Source of the DNA: an uncultured Clostridium sp. | GTDB lineage: Bacteria > Bacillota > Clostridia > TANB77 > CAG-508 | Length of the DNA stretch: 64,000 bases | Reading direction: 5' to 3' | Assembly (NCBI GenBank): GCA_930991035.1 | Contig: CAKNRV010000004.1 | Coordinates: 262-64,261, forward strand | Shown: piece after piece, positions 29,987-37,264 of the stretch | Layout: each line of letters starts with the position of its first letter | How positions within the stretch are numbered: the stretch's first letter is position 1 | Made by a program: the position numbers and the translations under genes | Notes under the pieces: generated by a model | Told to the model about the DNA's origin: nothing | Databases searched by the model: none | The model's input: only the letters and a program-made list of their open reading frames with translations

Positions 29987-32815
29987 ATGAATGATAAAAT
30001 AGTAATAAAAGGAGCAAAAGAGCATAACCTTAAAAATATAAATATAGAAATTCCAAGAGATAAATTAGTAGTTATAACAGGACTTTCGGGTTCGGGTAAA
30101 TCTTCTCTTGCATTTGATACACTATATGCAGAAGGACAAAGAAGATATGTAGAAAGTTTATCTGCGTATGCAAGACAATTTTTAGGATTAATGGAGAAAC
30201 CAGATGTAGAATCAATTGACGGGCTTTCTCCAGCAATTTCAATAGACCAAAAAACTACTTCTAAAAATCCACGTTCTACTGTTGGTACTGTTACAGAAAT
30301 TTATGACTATATACGTCTTTTATATGCAAGAATTGGTGTGCCATATTGTCCTAAATGTGGTAAAAAAATTGAAAAGCAAACAATAGATCAAATTATAGAC
30401 AATATATTAGAACTAGAAGAAGGCACAAGGATTCAAGTTTTAGCACCAATAGTAAGAGGAAGAAAAGGTGAGTTTACAAAGCTTTTAGAAAATTTCCAAA
30501 AAGAAGGCTTTGTAAGAGCCAGAATAGATGGAGAGATGGTAGAGCTTTCTGACGATTTACAAATAGACAGAAAGAAAAAGCACAATATAGAGTTAATTGT
30601 AGATAGATTAGTTATAAAAGAAGACATTAGAAGTAGATTAACAGAATCTGTTGAAACAGCTCTAAAGCACGCTAACAACATAGTTATCATAGAAGATGCG
30701 ACACATAAAAATGAGATGTTATTTAGCCAAAACTATGCCTGCCCAGATTGTGGAATTAGTTTTGAAGAGTTAACACCAAGAATGTTCTCATTTAACAATC
30801 CATTTGGGGCTTGCCCAAGTTGTACAGGTATTGGATACTTAATGAAAATGGACGAAGACTTAATTATTCCTGACAAAAACAAAACTCTATATGATGGTGT
30901 AAAAGCCTTTGGCTCTAGTGTTATGAAACGTGGAGACACTATGGCTAAGATGTATTTTGAAAGCATTGCAAAACATTATGGAGTAGAAATAAAAGGTGTA
31001 CCTATAAAGAAATTACCACGTGACTTCCTAGATAAAATCCTATATGGTACAGGTGACGAAGAAATAAATTTTGAATATACATCAGCAGCTGGAACAAGAA
31101 GGTTTACAGCACCATTCGAAGGAGTTTTGCCAACACTAGAAAGACGCCATAATGAGACAAAATCTCAAGGAATGCGTACTTTTTATGAAATGTATATGAG
31201 TGAATCTCCTTGTCCAGAATGTCACGGTGCAAGACTAAAAAAAGAAAGCCTATCTGTAAAAGTAGGAGATAAAAATATAAATGAACTTACAGATATGTCA
31301 ATAAATAAAATAAAGGACTATTTAAATTCTTTAGAGTTAAATGCTAAAGATAGAATGATTGCAGACCAAATATTCAAAGAATTAAATAAAAGATTACAAT
31401 TTTTGATAGATGTTGGACTAGAATATTTAACACTTTCAAGAAGTGCTGGAACATTATCAGGAGGAGAAGCACAACGTATACGTTTGGCAACACAAATTGG
31501 TTCTGGACTTACAGGAGTGTTATACATCTTAGACGAGCCAAGCATAGGACTACATCAAAGGGACAACGACAAACTGCTTGCAACTTTAAAGCACTTGAGA
31601 GATTTAGGAAATACTGTTTTAGTAGTAGAACACGACGAAGATACTATGTATGCAGCAGACCAAATAATTGATATAGGGCCTGGGGCTGGCGTGCACGGAG
31701 GAAACGTTATGGCACAGGGAACAGCAGAAGAAGTAAAACTTGTACCAGACTCTATTACAGGGCAATATTTAAGTGGCAGAAAGAAAATATTAGTTCCAAA
31801 AAAACGTAGAAAATCTAATGGAAAGTCTATTGAAGTAAAAGGAGCTACTGAGCATAACTTAAAAAATATAAATGTAAAATTTCCACTTGGACAATTTATT
31901 TGTGTTACTGGTGTTTCTGGCTCAGGGAAAAGTACATTAGTAAATGAAATATTATACAAAACAATTGCAAGAGACTTGAACGATTCAAATGAAAAACCTG
32001 GAAAATGCAAAGAAGTAAAAGGATTGGAAAACATAGATAAAATAATTAACATCGACCAATCTCCAATAGGAAGAACACCACGTTCTAATCCAGCAACATA
32101 TACAGGTGTATTTGATTTTATACGTGATTTGTTTGCAGGAACAAATGAAGCTAAAATGAGAGGATATGACAAAGGAAGATTTAGCTTTAATGTTCAGGGG
32201 GGAAGATGTGAAGCTTGTAACGGAGATGGAATATTAAAAATAGAAATGCACTTCTTGCCAGATATATATGTACCTTGTGAAGTTTGCAAGGGAAAAAGAT
32301 ACAACAAAGAAACATTAGAGGTAAAATATAAAGGCAAAACTATATCAGATGTATTAGATATGACAGTAGAAGAAGCATTAGAATTCTTTAAAAATATACC
32401 TAGAATAAAAGACAAAATACAAACCCTATATGATGTTGGACTTGGATACATAAAATTAGGACAACCATCTACAACATTATCAGGAGGAGAAGCACAACGT
32501 ATAAAACTTGCAACAGAGCTTTCTAAAAGAGCTACTGGAAAAACATTGTATATCTTAGACGAACCAACAACAGGACTTCATATAGCAGATGTTCACAGAT
32601 TGGTTGATATATTGCAAAGAATAGTTGATACAGGAAACAGCATTATTGTAATTGAACACAACTTAGACTTAATTAAAACGGCAGATTATATCATTGACCT
32701 TGGACCAGAAGGTGGAGATGGTGGAGGAGAAATAGTTGCAGTTGGTTCTCCAGAGCAAATTGTAAAGAATGAAAGAAGCTATACAGGTAAGTTTTTGAAA
32801 AAATATTTGGAATAA
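29987..32815 (+). CDS. uvrA: Excinuclease ABC subunit A
   Basis: Two ABC modules ([18 protein letters not shown]) and zinc-finger CxxC pairs, 942 aa. Confidence 0.97.
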
Positions 32816-32936
32816 TTAATAACTTGTAGGTCCCCATCTTAAGCGGTCCAACATAAAATTAAAAATAACATTGCTTCGCTTGAATAATAAGAGTTAGACT
32901 TGCTCACAAAAAGCAAATCTAACTCTTATGTCCTAA

Positions 32937-33020
32937 CTATTGATTGTTGTTATTGTTATTTTCGTTTTGTTTTCCATTATTTTTTTTGTTATTCTTTTTT
33001 GAATTTTTATTTTCTGCCAT
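32937..33020 (-). CDS. Tiny Asn/Lys-rich peptide, 27 aa (MAENKNSKKNNKKNNGKQNENNNNNNQ)
   Basis: GGAGGTG SD 6 nt before the ATG at 33020. A strong hairpin terminator follows the stop (32888-32931). Confidence 0.45.
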   Translation of the reverse strand: MAENKNSKKNNKKNNGKQNENNNNNNQ

Positions 33021-33211
33021 TAGAAGCACCTCCAATCTAGTAAAATTATGCACAAAAAATATAAAATTATACAGAAATTTATTTTTGAATACGTAATAAT
33101 ATGTACTATTTAAAATAATATTGATTAGCCAAAAATATAACTGTATTTGTAACTAAAAAACGAGAAATAAAGTAAAAGACAAGAAATAAAGTAAAAGACA
33201 AGAAAAATTTC

Positions 33212-33240
33212 TTGACAAGCAAAAGAATTATTGATATTAT
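33212..33240 (+). promoter_or_regulatory. Promoter of leader/LRR unit 1
   Basis: TTGACA-17 nt-TATTAT, preceded by a 2x tandem 20-mer AAGAAATAAAGTAAAAGAC (33163-33203). Confidence 0.65.
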
Positions 33241-33331
33241 TTAGCTGTGCAAAAAAAGAAGTTGGAGAAATTATTTCTTCAATAAGTTTTGTATAACTTG
33301 AGAAGAAAAAGCAAAGGAGAAAAGACAAAAA

Positions 33332-33412
33332 ATGGGAACAAAAAGAATAAGAAAAATGATTAAAACCGTTGGCGTTGTAAGAGAGAGAGAGAGAGAGAGA
33401 GCAATAGATTAG
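33332..33412 (+). CDS. Leader ORF 1 (26 codons as sequenced) containing the (AG)11 tract
   Basis: AAAGGAG SD; MGTKRIRKMIKTVGVVRERERERAID*. A conserved stop-free frame 33403-33531 would be joined if the tract had 10 or 13 units. Confidence 0.45.
   Translation: MGTKRIRKMIKTVGVVRERERERAID
33380..33401 (+). repeat. (AG)11 dinucleotide microsatellite
   Basis: Perfect 22-nt AG tract. Confidence 0.95.
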
Positions 33413-33474
33413 AAAAAGTTGCTCAAATTTGTGATGCTAAAAATGTAAGTGTAAATAATAAAATAGATAAGCAA

Positions 33475-33543
33475 AAAAGGATAGATTATATTGCAAATAG
33501 AAGGAAAGAAAAACTTCTATTTACAGGATAGTCTATCCTTTTT
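33475..33543 (+). terminator. Compound hairpin + T-run (putative attenuator/terminator) upstream of LRR gene 1
   Basis: Outer stem AAAAGGATAGA/TCTATCCTTTT, inner stem AAATAGAAG/CTTCTATTT, then TTTTTG. It ends 37 nt before ATG 33580. Confidence 0.5.
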
Positions 33544-33579
33544 GCGCGTTTAAAAATAAATTTAAGGAGGAAAAAGTCA

Positions 33580-35538
33580 ATGAAAAGAGAAAAGACAAAA
33601 GGAATAACATTACTAGCATTAGTACTAACCATAGTAGTGTTAATAATATTAGCAACAGTAAGTATAAATATGTTGTTTGGAGAAAATGGATTAGTAACAT
33701 CAGCCAATATGGCAGTAAAAATGTCAGAATTCTCAACATTTTTGGAAGAGAAAAATATGTTTGATGCAAATAAAAAAGCAGAAAATGTGGAATATATGCA
33801 AGAAAGTTTAAATGCAGGCAAAACAGTTCTATCCTATAACACACAAGGAAGTGAAGAAACCGATGGGAATATACAAATAGTAATTCCATCAATGGGAGAC
33901 GAATACTTAAACAAATTTGAGATAATAAATGGAGAGCTAATAGTAAATACAGCAGATATTACAGAAATAGAAGTAGCCAGAGCATTAGGAATACAATCAA
34001 ATCCATATGATATAGTAGATGGAGTACTAACATCTTCAAATGAAAATTTAAGCTTGCAAGCACCAAACGGAGTGTTAAAAATCCCAGATAGTGTAACGGT
34101 AATAGGTTCAGGAGCATTTTCAGGGGTTAAAGGATTGACAGAGGTAATAATTCCAGGAACAGTGCAAGAAATACAATCAGATGCATTTTCATATAACACA
34201 GAAATAGAAAAAGTAACAATACAAAATGGAGTAAAAAGCATAGGAGCAAATGCATTTAGAGAATGTAGTAGTTTGCAGGAAATAATAATACCGGATAGTG
34301 TAACAACAATTGGAACGTATGCTTTTTATGCTTGTACAAATTTAAAAAAAGTACAGTTGTCTAATAATCTATCTATATTAAATGCATCTGTTTTTTATGG
34401 GTGCAATAACTTAACCGAAATAAACATACCAACAAAATTAACCCAAATATCTGATAGTGTATTTACTAATTGTACAAAATTAAATAATATAACCATACCA
34501 GCAGGAGTAACAAGTATAGCAAGCAGTGCATTTAGCGATTGTACAAGTTTGACAAATTTAACAATAGACCCATCAAATGAATCATATAAACTAGACGAAA
34601 ATCAATCAGGCATAATATATAAATTAGACGAAATTACTGGAGAACCAACATCATTAATAATGTTAGCAACAATGGCAAATGAAGAAACAGTAAGAATTAG
34701 TGAAGGAATAACAAGCTTAGAAGTAGGAGCACTATCAATATGTACAAATATGAAAACATTGGAATTACCAAGTAGTTTGTCAAGTATCATAGGAAGTACT
34801 TTTGACAGACTTAGATTATTGGGAAATATAAGCTTTCCTTATGGCAATAGCAATTACACAGTAGAAAATGGATATCTATATGGAAATAATGGAACAGAAT
34901 TAATCTATGTGGTTCCGACTAAAACTCAAATAGAAATAAATGAAAAAGTACAAATAATAGGGAGTCATTCAATTCAAAATAGAAATATAACAGAGTTAAA
35001 TATACCAGATAATGTAACAACAATAGAAAATCAAGCATTATATGGTACCAGTAAATTAGCAAAAATACACATAGGAAGTGGAGTATGTAGTTTATCAAGT
35101 CAATTTAAAGAATGGTCGCAAATACCAAATGGACTTGAAATAGAAATAGATGGAGATAATCAAAATTATAAAGTAGAAAATAATTTAATATTAACAAAGG
35201 ATGGAACAGAGGTAGTAACTTATGTGAATAAAGATGTACAGACTCAGGAAATACCAACAAATGTAGTAAAAATTAGTAGTTTTGCTTTTACAGATTTTGA
35301 TATAGCAACAGAAATAATATTGCCAAATACATTAAAAGAAATAGAAAGTAATGCCTTTAGATATTGCGATGGAATAACACAAATAGAAATCCCAAGTAGC
35401 GTAGAAACAATAGGAAATAACGCATTCGATAATTGCTCTAATTTGGAAACAATAAAAATAAACAAAGCAAAAGGCGACCTAGCAGGAGCACCCTGGGGAG
35501 CACCAAAGGGTGATAGAGTGCTTGTGTGGAGTGAGTAG
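33580..35538 (+). CDS. BspA-type leucine-rich-repeat surface protein with pilin-like (class III-like) N-terminal signal, paralog 1
   Basis: N-terminus MKREKTKG|ITLLALVLTIVVLIILA. More than 15 repeats of the IPxSVTxIGxxAFxxCxxL (LRR_5/BspA-like) unit. Confidence 0.85.
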   Translation: MKREKTKGITLLALVLTIVVLIILATVSINMLFGENGLVTSANMAVKMSEFSTFLEEKNMFDANKKAENVEYMQESLNAGKTVLSYNTQGSEETDGNIQIVIPSMGDEYLNKFEIINGELIVNTADITEIEVARALGIQSNPYDIVDGVLTSSNENLSLQAPNGVLKIPDSVTVIGSGAFSGVKGLTEVIIPGTVQEIQSDAFSYNTEIEKVTIQNGVKSIGANAFRECSSLQEIIIPDSVTTIGTYAFYACTNLKKVQLSNNLSILNASVFYGCNNLTEINIPTKLTQISDSVFTNCTKLNNITIPAGVTSIASSAFSDCTSLTNLTIDPSNESYKLDENQSGIIYKLDEITGEPTSLIMLATMANEETVRISEGITSLEVGALSICTNMKTLELPSSLSSIIGSTFDRLRLLGNISFPYGNSNYTVENGYLYGNNGTELIYVVPTKTQIEINEKVQIIGSHSIQNRNITELNIPDNVTTIENQALYGTSKLAKIHIGSGVCSLSSQFKEWSQIPNGLEIEIDGDNQNYKVENNLILTKDGTEVVTYVNKDVQTQEIPTNVVKISSFAFTDFDIATEIILPNTLKEIESNAFRYCDGITQIEIPSSVETIGNNAFDNCSNLETIKINKAKGDLAGAPWGAPKGDRVLVWSE

Positions 35539-35943
35539 AAGATAAAAATTTATTTTTTAAATAGAAAATTTATATCACGAAAAAATCAGAAAATTTGTAA
35601 TATAAAATTTATAGGGTAAAAGGATCAAAAACATCCACAGGTTTCCTGTGGATGTTCAATCGATCTAAAAGATATGTATAAGCCTATGTCGAAAAATGTC
35701 GAACGATTTATGTTGACTATGGCATATAAATATGTTATAGTCAACACATTAATTCAAAAATGTTTTTTGAACTCAAATGAATTGTTTCAAATTTTTTATG
35801 TTTATATCAATTACATATTAAGTTATATCTAAAATATTTTCTCAATGTTAAACATAATCTAAAATATAAAATTTGTATCAAAATAATTTATTTCAAAAGA
35901 TATTTTCAAAATTAAAATATTTTAATCATATGGAGGACGAGTT

Positions 35944-36864
35944 ATGCCAAAAAATAAAATTACAAATACAAAAGAAAATAAAGGAGAAAAACGAAAATTA
36001 CTATCACCAAAATTAGATGTAGTATTTCAAGTCTTATTCGGCGAAAAAGGAAGCGAGAATATTACCAAAAAGATTTTGAAAGCAATATTAAAAGAGCCAA
36101 TCAACAAAGTAGATTTAAGTAGAAATCCAATATTAAGAAGACAAAAGATAAAAGGAAAAATGGGAGTGTTGGATGTAATAGCAGAATTAAACGAAAAAGA
36201 AATGTGCGATATAGAGATGCAAGTAGGAGAGCAAGAAAATATAATAAAGAGGATATTGTATTATTGGGCAAGAGTGTACGGAAGTAATATAAACAAAAAA
36301 GAAGATTATGAAGTATTAAAAAGAACCATTGCAATATTAATCGCAGACTTTGAAATTCCAGGATTGAAGGAACTAGGATATTACACAGATTGGAAGCTAA
36401 TAGAAACAGAGAGCAGAAAAGTAATATTGACAGATACAATCGAGATTGTTATAATAGAGTTGCCAAAGATATATAGGTTAAAAGAAGAAGAGCAAGACAA
36501 AGAATTACTAGACTGGCTATATTTTTTAGAAGATCCAAATTCAAAGAGGGTGATGGATGCAATGAAGGAAAATGAAGGAATAAGGGAAGCAAGAGAAAAA
36601 TTAGAAGAAATGAGCAATGATGTAATAATGCAAAGATTAGCAGAATATAGAGAGTCTGCAATAATTGAAGAAAATGAGGCAAGAAATACAGCGTTACATA
36701 AAGGCATAGCGCAAGGTAGAGAAGAAGGCTTGAAAGAGGGACTTGAACAAGGTGAAAAGAAAAAACAATACGAAATAGCCAAGAAGCTGAAAAATAAAGG
36801 AATAGCAATTGAAGAGATAATGGAAATTACGGATTTACCAAAAGAAGAGGTAGAAAAATTATAA
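35944..36864 (+). CDS. Rpn-family recombination-promoting nuclease / PD-(D/E)XK putative transposase (YhgA-like)
   Basis: LLSPKLDVVFQVLFG..., GVLDVIAEL...CDIEMQV (D...E-x-Q/K nuclease core), C-terminal EEGxxEG repeats plus a GIAIEEIMEITDL helix. This pattern is typical of the PDDEXK_2/Rpn family (from memory). Confidence 0.65.
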   Translation: MPKNKITNTKENKGEKRKLLSPKLDVVFQVLFGEKGSENITKKILKAILKEPINKVDLSRNPILRRQKIKGKMGVLDVIAELNEKEMCDIEMQVGEQENIIKRILYYWARVYGSNINKKEDYEVLKRTIAILIADFEIPGLKELGYYTDWKLIETESRKVILTDTIEIVIIELPKIYRLKEEEQDKELLDWLYFLEDPNSKRVMDAMKENEGIREAREKLEEMSNDVIMQRLAEYRESAIIEENEARNTALHKGIAQGREEGLKEGLEQGEKKKQYEIAKKLKNKGIAIEEIMEITDLPKEEVEKL

Positions 36865-36947
36865 ACAATAGAAGGCAGATACAAATATCAATAATTTTTA
36901 CCATTTAAAAGATATGATAAAAACTGAAAAAATATGCTATGTGCCAC

Positions 36948-36976
36948 TTGACAAAGAAAGTTAGTATTGATAATAT
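36948..36976 (+). promoter_or_regulatory. Promoter of leader/LRR unit 2
   Basis: TTGACA-17 nt-TAATAT. Confidence 0.65.
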
Positions 36977-37015
36977 ATAAATACAAAAGAAAAAGCAAAG
37001 GAGAAAAGGCAAAAA

Positions 37016-37093
37016 ATGGAGACAAAAAAGACAAGAAAAATGGATAAAACCGTTGGAACTGTAAGAGAGAGAGAGAGAGAGAGAGAGCAATAG
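37016..37093 (+). CDS. Leader ORF 2 (25 codons as sequenced) containing the (AG)12 tract
   Basis: AAAGGAG SD; METKKTRKMDKTVGTVREREREREQ*. The conserved stop-free frame 37089-37217 would be joined at 10 or 13 units. Confidence 0.45.
   Translation: METKKTRKMDKTVGTVREREREREQ
37064..37087 (+). repeat. (AG)12 dinucleotide microsatellite
   Basis: Perfect 24-nt AG tract. Confidence 0.95.
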
Positions 37094-37160
37094 ATTAGAA
37101 AAAAGTGCTCTTGTTTGTGATGCAAGAAATGTAAGCATAATAAATAAAATAGATAAGCAT

Positions 37161-37229
37161 AAAAGGGTAGATTATATTGCGAATAGAAGGAAGGAAAAAC
37201 TTCTATTTACAGGATAGTCTATCCTTTTT
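37161..37229 (+). terminator. Compound hairpin + T-run upstream of LRR gene 2
   Basis: AAAAGGGTAGA/TCTATCCTTTT (the A-to-G change keeps a G-U pair), inner AATAGAAG/CTTCTATT, then T-run. Confidence 0.5.
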
Positions 37230-37264
37230 GCGCGTATAAAAATAAATATTAGGAGGAAAAGTTA

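Follow-up and report, generated by a model that had tools for sequence, protein, structure and literature searches.

CT/AG repeats in the 5′ ends of outer-membrane protein genes of H. pylori are an example of the classical dinucleotide contingency loci located inside open reading frames (ORFs). In the pyrBI leader of E. coli, ribosome-coupled attenuation operates without an antiterminator and its input is UTP-dependent pausing, and in leaders of the trp and his type the input is the supply of charged tRNA. At cwpV and flgB of C. difficile, site-specific DNA inversion by RecV creates or removes a terminator or a Rho site. The flgB switch is cited in PMC12360218 and trp attenuation is discussed in PMC3894217.

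Leader-ORF phase variation combined with attenuation was found, in the literature searched, only in S. gallolyticus. At its pil1 and pil3 loci, GCAGA repeats in a leader ORF set the length of the leader (Danne et al. 2014, PMC3894217). Short peptides, which stop 39 nt before the terminator, give low expression, and long peptides, which stop within or beyond it, give high expression; ATG mutants, inserted stops and deletion of the terminator confirmed translation-mediated anti-termination (PMC3894217).

Here, a 64-kb window (64,000 nucleotides, the whole stretch of DNA analysed) from an uncultured Clostridium sp. was investigated. With a probability of roughly 0.7, we read the module at 36948-37264 as a contingency switch acting by translation-dependent anti-termination, in which an (AG)n leader ORF gates the gene of a leucine-rich-repeat (LRR) surface protein. 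This reading is supported by tract polymorphism, ON alleles, an open frame, the regular position of the long-frame stop within the hairpin, a peptide conservation that tracks the RNA, the variant outputs of relatives and the S. gallolyticus precedent.

Like pil1 and pil3, the module carries an SSR in a short leader ORF between a promoter and genes for surface structures, with a stem-loop terminator, predicted here, downstream. In both systems the stops of the short frames precede the hairpin by a wide margin (39 nt in S. gallolyticus and 62-67 nt here, against a criterion of at least 28 nt), the long-frame stops lie within or just beyond it, a genome has more than one locus, and the bacterium is a gut Firmicute whose adhesive surface structures are targeted. 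The repeat of the window is the dinucleotide (AG)n, unlike the GCAGA pentanucleotide, and the two systems have no homology in sequence. Only one of the three frames is long in the window, whereas in S. gallolyticus the peptide becomes long whichever direction an out-of-frame change takes. In the window each target is a single gene for a surface protein whose N-terminal anchor is pilin-like, while pil1 and pil3 are sortase pilus operons, and the window cassette is modular, spread over many loci and also found fused to the gene or with an RBS-masking helix, unlike pil1 and pil3. The module appears to display every structural feature of the pil1/pil3 mechanism and to be an analogue of it, not a homologue; the same logic has probably evolved independently from a dinucleotide repeat and an unrelated sequence.

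With the H. pylori loci the window shares a dinucleotide tract near the 5′ end of the frame, frame-dependent ON and OFF states, wrong-frame stops just after the tract and surface targets, but its tract is outside the coding sequence of the regulated gene; one relative (L016:7040) does have the fused layout. As in the pyrBI, trp and his leaders, a ribosome that translates the leader ORF into the terminator hairpin is proposed to prevent termination. Unlike in these leaders, the input would be genetic, repeat number setting the frame, and not metabolic, and neither regulatory codons nor an alternative antiterminator helix was evident in the window. With cwpV and flgB the proposal has in common the stochastic ON/OFF expression of surface structures in Clostridia by premature termination in the 5′ leader, although the input would be replication slippage of an SSR read by the ribosome and not DNA inversion. 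No description of this Clostridia leader family was found in the literature searched.

Genomic setting and anatomy of the leader module

The window comes from the chromosome of a bacterium with a low GC content (about 30%). Upstream of the LRR region lie uvrB, a Firmicute-type FBPase gene and uvrA, downstream lie cmk and murD, and a gene of the Rpn family (PD-(D/E)XK) is located between the two LRR genes. All features described below are on the + strand. The regulated genes encode BspA-type LRR proteins of 652 aa (copy 1, 33580-35538) and 647 aa (copy 2, 37265-39208), matching Pfam LRR_5 with E = 1e-85 and 1e-90, respectively. The two proteins are 75% identical overall and identical in residues 1-45, and within the 64 kb an N-terminus of this type occurs only in these two. 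The N-terminal anchor of the copy 2 surface protein is of a basic/Gly/hydrophobic kind and appears pilin-like; its prepilin-type identity was unconfirmed by Pfam (no N_methyl match) and by NCBIfam (one weak match, E = 0.066, in a relative).

The copy 2 module opens with a promoter-like site at 36948-36976 (TTGACA-17 nt-TAATAT, TG before the −10, 10/12 match), followed by an SD (AAAGGAG, 36997-37003) that is kept in copy 1 and in relatives. The leader ORF as it stands, in the OFF state, extends from the ATG at 37016 to 37093 (25 codons and a TAG at 37091-37093) and translates as METKKTRKMDKTVGTVREREREREQ followed by the stop. It contains the hypermutable (AG)12 tract at 37064-37087, detected by TRF; a perfect, uninterrupted SSR is thus found inside a leader ORF with SD and ATG, between a promoter-like site and a structural gene. 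Directly 3′ of the tract comes CAATAGATTAG, through which each of the two wrong frames runs into a TAG. Every coordinate that the earlier note had given for the promoter-like site, the SD and ATG, the tract and the stop was correct. The hidden ON frame, read when n = 10 or 13, occupies 37089-37217 with 42 sense codons and a TAG at 37215-37217, and overlaps an intrinsic-terminator-like hairpin at 37161-37229, which has a 5′ A-run, a long stem, a 10-nt loop and a U5 end.

The LRR gene has its own SD (AGGAGG, 37251-37256) and ATG, the ON frame ending at 37217, 47 nt short of the LRR start at 37265. The distance from the hairpin to the LRR start codon is only about 35 nt, in which no credible or strong separate promoter fits, and LRR expression should therefore depend on read-through. 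A covariance search of 32800-37700 against Rfam 15 at E ≤ 10 returned only two chance-level miRNA matches; a known riboswitch, T-box or other structured leader was rejected, this permissive scan of both leaders having yielded no family.

Comparison of the two copies

Copy 1 has a promoter-like site at 33212-33240 (TTGACA-17-TATTAT, 11/12), a leader ORF at 33332-33412 (26 codons and a TAG, in the other OFF frame), an (AG)11 tract at 33380-33401 detected by TRF, a hidden ON frame at 33403-33531 (42 codons and a TAG) and a terminator-like hairpin with U5 at 33473-33543 (dG −30.6 kcal/mol, z −9.2). The tracts of copies 1 and 2 are the only AG tracts within the 64-kb window, and their hairpins likewise the only ones of this kind. 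The module ahead of each LRR gene is about 280 nt long and 86-91% identical between the copies, which is higher than the identity of the LRR genes themselves (76-85% nt, 75% aa). Directly after its tract, copy 1 (n = 11) reads GCA-ATA-GAT-TAG and copy 2 (n = 12) reads CAA-TAG, so that the sequence confirms the view of the earlier note that the copies are parked in the two alternative OFF frames. Judged by these frames, both copies would currently be OFF.

The hidden frames were described in the same note as equal in length (42 codons), stop-free and different by 8 replacements (V>S, Q>L, I>V, K>R, V>I, N>I, Q>H, I>V) with no indel, and the sequence check agrees. Three changes between the copies fall in the hairpin: A>G at hidden-frame nt 79, which turns an A-U pair of the outer stem into G-U and was borne out by folding as preserving the pairing, and two further A>G changes, one at nt 93 with the same effect in the inner stem and one at nt 105 in the loop. 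The reading of 36948-37264 as a second copy of a leader/(AG)n/terminator module is supported, and tract polymorphism, in-frame alleles and the tracking of hairpins by stops are added to it here.

Tract length in related loci

A lookup of the exact 647-aa LRR protein in public assemblies led to contigs with identical flanks. Among loci with a 100% identical LRR protein and identical flanks, n = 12 was found in the window and L008 and n = 11 in L009 and L010. The orthologous loci L015 and L018 had n = 8 and n = 10, L016 had n = 10, and L017, whose contig ends inside the tract, had n of at least 11. Protein pairs were also found that differed only by the number of RE repeats, namely P0004/P0007 (n = 10 and 4) and P0008/P0014 (n = 10 and 7).

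An ORF-independent sample was obtained by scanning metagenome contigs with the pre-tract pattern AAACCGTTGNNNNTGTA followed by (AG) in at least five copies. Of the 33 loci obtained, several carried a human-gut label; n was between 7 and 24, and 12 of the 33 were in the long (ON) frame, close to the 1/3 expected for a free-running, freely slipping switch. Over all relatives n ranged from 4 to 24. An ON allele of copy 2 itself was not among the alleles found, and both window copies stand in OFF frames. The contigs L013, L014 and L017 break at the tract, which in assembled consensus sequences is at most suggestive of heterogeneity within populations.

Openness of the hidden frame

A search with the frame-corrected 67-aa product returned 30 metagenomic proteins, many of them full-length. 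The in-frame proteins read ...TVGxV(RE)kSNRLEK...KRIDYIANRRKEKLLFTG, with the C-terminus KLLFTG, at n = 4, 7, 10 or 13; therefore the ON state needs n = 1 mod 3, as had been deduced from the window before. The DNA pattern AGAGAGCAATAGATTAGAAAAA matched in one MAG only, uncultured Clostridia bacterium BRZ_FC__bin47, and had no match in the metagenome collection, and among the GTDB representative genomes a protein pattern matched 74 times, with none of the matches confirmed. All relatives found were from uncultured Clostridia or gut metagenomes.

In the 126 nt of copy 2, the ON frame contains no stop and the other two frames contain 6 each; over all counts made, each alternative frame has 5-7 stops and the ON frame none. 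Of the shuffles of the hidden frame that preserved dinucleotides, only 0.5% were stop-free. At L015:525, a locus in the OFF state (n = 8), the hidden frame is open over 79 codons, and 0 of 5000 shuffles were open. Insertions of 10 and 37 codons in relatives kept the frame, which was intact in every relative examined, OFF-state loci included. Neither the stops nor the frame-breaking indels in relatives against which the earlier note had weighed its proposal were found, and its claim that the frame is or was translated gains support from the in-frame alleles and from the openness in all diverged relatives.

Substitutions were less informative. Four window-type leaders differ at 16 variable sites, which are distributed 5/4/7 over the first, second and third codon positions; the majority of the codon changes are non-synonymous. 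A dN/dS-style look at the hidden frame had only these few, evenly spread changes to draw on, and the pattern, the second criterion by which the frame was to be judged, does not single out the hidden frame. The argument for translation from mostly conservative replacements carries no weight with such a spread and mostly non-synonymous changes. The selected property appears to be the open frame and not the peptide sequence.

The hairpin and the position of the stops

The copy 2 hairpin, which occupies the 3′ third of the leader, has a predicted dG of −28.5 kcal/mol (z = −7.2) and a U5 tail; its stem is A/U-rich and there are only five U. A simple terminator scan did not flag it, the 10-nt loop and internal mismatches being outside the pattern of that scan, but direct folding finds it. 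The OFF stops of the window are 62 and 67 nt upstream of the hairpin, and the ON stop is in the 3′ arm, 12 nt from the hairpin end. If its footprint measures about 30 nt, as assumed in PMC3894217, a ribosome terminating at this position would cover the whole 3′ arm.

The same geometry was sought in 39 modules by locating, downstream of every one, the best hairpin followed by a T-run. The modules represent about 11 hairpin sequences unrelated to one another, with energies of −9 to −35 kcal/mol, most below −26, and z of −7 to −9 where tested. The long-frame stop was inside the hairpin in 30 of the 39 modules by script and in 32 by eye, two having been mis-scored. In most remaining modules it was 2-3 nt before or 2-13 nt after the hairpin, and one module reads 59 nt further. 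The short-frame stops were never closer than 19 nt to the hairpin on its upstream side, and the usual distance was 60-175 nt. Among the window-type leaders, 13 of the 16 variable sites precede the hairpin and 3 are inside it, all 3 structure-neutral. We infer that the hairpin is an intrinsic terminator and that its action is relieved by translation.

Proposed mechanism of switching

The switch may be depicted as follows: A sigma-70-type promoter would drive a transcript that opens with the short leader ORF (ATG 37016) carrying the slippage-prone (AG)n. With n = 11 or 12, the ribosome would be released at a TAG 62-67 nt before the hairpin, the free hairpin would form and transcription would stop ahead of the LRR gene. 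With n = 10 or 13, 42 more codons would be read and the ribosome would stop at the TAG at 37215-37217 in the 3′ arm of the hairpin; its footprint would block the hairpin, RNA polymerase would read on and the LRR surface protein would be made. Switching of this kind would be expected within populations. In B. subtilis, RNA polymerase outruns the ribosome and the coupling of the two is weak. If the present lineage behaves like B. subtilis, the lead ribosome may fail to reach the hairpin in time without a pause.

Alternative explanations

The in-frame peptide of 65-67 aa could itself be the switched product, a small regulator or effector, with the LRR gene expressed independently; a regulatory role of the basic, ~65-aa peptide had been considered in the earlier note. 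The peptide is very basic, its N-terminal 30 residues KTVGxV(RE)nSNRLEKxAxxCDAK are common to most relatives, and AlphaFold2 predicts a single long, continuous helix at moderate confidence (pLDDT 70). The pTM of 0.30, however, indicates no tertiary fold, the in-frame peptide had no match in Pfam or PDB, and the profile search that had been proposed for it found no family. The peptide family comprises only 26 representative clusters among 1.84 billion, and its members range in length between 41 and 146 aa and are unrelated to one another in the middle part and at the C-terminus; in human-gut relatives the same pre-tract leads into another peptide, LYFTNIECS..., after the tract. What conservation the C-terminus has is that of the hairpin RNA: the invariant KR(I/V)DYIANRRK(E/A)KLLF(T/A)G coincides exactly with the hairpin, with its amino acid variants at wobble, mismatch or loop positions, and the LSFL-stop that recurs at otherwise unrelated C-termini is CUAUCCUUUUUG (CUA-UCC-UUU-UUG), the hairpin base and U-run. 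Purifying selection is not visible in the 5/4/7 spread over codon positions, the tract of fused relatives runs directly into the surface protein, and the window leaves no room for a separate LRR promoter. A small folded regulatory protein was dropped for want of a domain, of a compact fold and of any codon-position bias among the substitutions, and an effector function of the peptide, which itself looks unimportant, is very unlikely. The strongly conserved pre-tract K-T-V-G-x-V (AAAACCGTTGG...GTA) and post-tract SNRLEK.A..CDAK are not explained by a pure ribosome-track model. These segments may reflect homogenisation of the cassette by gene conversion, which is suggested because leaders are mosaic between copies and strains despite an identical LRR protein (L011 vs the window).

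The tract might also act without translation, through the structure, processing or stability of the leader RNA or through Rho-dependent polarity after an early stop, beyond which some 130 nt remain without translation; in H. influenzae, SSRs of the 5′ UTR can work by way of RNA structure and RNase III (PMC12721329). A good SD and ATG are nevertheless kept upstream of every tract, both wrong frames stop within 0-5 codons of the tract in almost all modules while the third is kept open, and the three-fold periodicity of the full-length alleles fits frame logic. Low-C RNA is a poor loading site for Rho, and with a leader RNA of only 8% C and a strong predicted hairpin with U-run present anyway, Rho-dependent polarity is improbable as the main route; an action of the tract independent of translation is on the whole unlikely. 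Decay is the least probable of the readings considered, the leaders then being what frameshifts have left of an N-terminal extension that the LRR protein once had, without any regulatory role today. That both copies are out of frame, that fused versions exist in relatives (L016:7040) and that an ON allele of copy 2 was not recovered would fit such a remnant, but the hidden frame is intact in every relative examined, OFF ones too, and a hairpin with the stop inside it is found again in modules of unrelated hairpin sequence. The leaders are, moreover, better conserved (86-91%) than the LRR genes (76-85% nt, 75% aa), and the tract is perfect, uninterrupted and polymorphic.

Proposed further outputs of the leader cassette

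The targets among relatives, too, are single genes, for LRR, fn3 or uncharacterised proteins with such a pilin-like anchor. In L016:7040 the tract is fused in frame with the surface-protein gene itself, the classical layout. Six loci (L001, L015:10055/L030, L023, L028 and L029) are without a terminator, and their peptides end in ...KDKYA-stop. The last codons and stop of these (AAAGATA(G/A)ATACGCTTGA) form a predicted 12-13-bp helix with the SD-to-start segment of the downstream gene, the partners being 107-185 nt apart. For this helix, energies of −14 to −16 kcal/mol were calculated, whereas 34 other RBS regions gave −3.8 ± 2 with a minimum of −10.3; all sequence differences within the helix keep the pairing. 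At P0029/L019 and others, the ORF passes the terminator and then ends in an RBS-pairing segment. Neither the RBS-unmasking version nor the serial terminator-plus-RBS version was found described in the literature searched. A Pfam search with the truncated products behind the L034 and L037 cassettes gave no usable match.

Such variant outputs are difficult to account for if the signal is anything other than the moving ribosome. Tentatively, and with somewhat less than even confidence, we propose that the (AG)n leader cassette (M..KTVGxV(RE)n and stops in both wrong frames) is a portable "frame sensor" of uncultured, largely human-gut Clostridia. It would have at least three ribosome-read outputs, sometimes in series, namely gene fusion, terminator read-through and melting of an RBS-masking helix, and would control a family of surface proteins and possibly other genes.

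Implications

For annotation, the rule may be stated that a short SSR-bearing ORF whose long frame ends in a terminator is a switch, and annotators should be warned that "intergenic" AG tracts and 25-aa ORFs would be functional. At about 250 nt, the modules would also be of use as small, naturally occurring parts from which to build stochastic switches for Firmicutes. The cassette is multi-copy, modular and common in uncultured Clostridia of human-gut metagenomes, and the LRR/BspA-type and other surface proteins that it would gate are likely to meet host immunity and phage.

Relatives of the leader module

A larger sister family of the window-type leaders was represented by 33 metagenome loci (L031-L063), several of them carrying a human gut label. 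The sequence before the tract is identical in this family (AAACCGTTG....TGTA), the peptide encoded after it is different (LYFTNIECSLFEHG...), and the long frame is ON when n = 0 mod 3. The tract varied from n = 9 to 24 among samples, and a small hairpin with a U-run again contained the stop of the long frame.

In L016 (7002-8442), a leader of the same kind as that of the module, MKKIKKLKSIEAV(RE)n, was fused in frame to a pilin-like surface-protein gene, which is the classical in-ORF layout of phase variation. With n = 12, this fused tract is OFF at present. The cassette was also found before, or fused to, non-adhesin genes in L034 (tract at oriented positions 10179-10192, minus strand) and L037 (1144-1165). 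The long frame of L037 enters a multi-pass membrane protein. The product downstream in L034 displayed a CDLPYG motif, reminiscent of motif IV of DNA methyltransferases, and by this motif the product could be a phase-variable methylase; Pfam searches with the truncated product fragments of L034 and L037 gave no usable match.

Relatives that share the (AG)n leader of the module and lack a terminator, here termed type C, were located at L001:10001-10233, L015:10001-10316, L023:268-565, L028:1501-1774, L029:1501-2410 and L030:714-1029. A long-range helix of 12-13 bp (ending near 1814 in L029) is predicted between their ON-frame stop region (AAAGATARATACGCTTGA) and the stretch from the SD to the start of the gene that follows, with a duplex energy of -14 to -16 kcal/mol compared to a background of -3.8. 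This predicted pairing suggests SSR-controlled translational unmasking of the downstream gene.

Assembly breaks were observed at the AG tract or close to it: the contigs of L013 and L014 start 33 nt upstream of the tract, and that of L017 ends within it, at 12747. Such breaks would be expected from mixed repeat numbers among the reads of a sample, but are not proof of them.

Possible exchange between cassettes

The pre-hairpin part of the leader in L011 (1323-1450) and L012 differed from the hidden ON frame of copy 1 (window 33403-33531) at five sites, although the 652-aa LRR protein of copy 1 is 100% identical among these strains. The variant leader is similar to those of copy 2 and L006b, and the metagenomic leader peptide P0001 is likewise a mosaic of copies 1 and 2. 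Taken together, these sequences suggest gene conversion between leaders.

Codons 1-45 of both LRR genes (window 33580-33714 in copy 1 and 37265-37399 in copy 2) encode identical peptides, whereas the proteins share 75% identity beyond these residues, so the N-terminal anchor seems to belong to the homogenised cassette. The shared N-terminus consists of a basic stretch, a Gly, about 20 hydrophobic residues and FGENGLVTSANMA; neither Pfam nor NCBIfam confirmed a prepilin-like nature.

In copy 1, the -35 box is directly preceded by a 19-nt tandem repeat, TAAAAGACAAGAAATAAAG (window 33154-33205; 2.7 copies, 93% matches), which is absent from copy 2 and L006. Two further well-conserved tandem repeats, at 18269-18358 (33 nt, 2.7 copies, 96% matches) and 44575-44664 (35 nt, 2.6 copies, 90% matches), are unconnected with the leader module.

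In several unrelated loci, the leader/surface-gene cassettes are adjoined by a gene of the Rpn family of recombination-promoting nucleases/putative transposases (PDDEXK_2, TIGR01784), found in the window at 35944-36864 and elsewhere at L015:9044-9934, L028:533-1435 and in L024-L026. The Rpn-family nuclease may help to duplicate or homogenise these cassettes.
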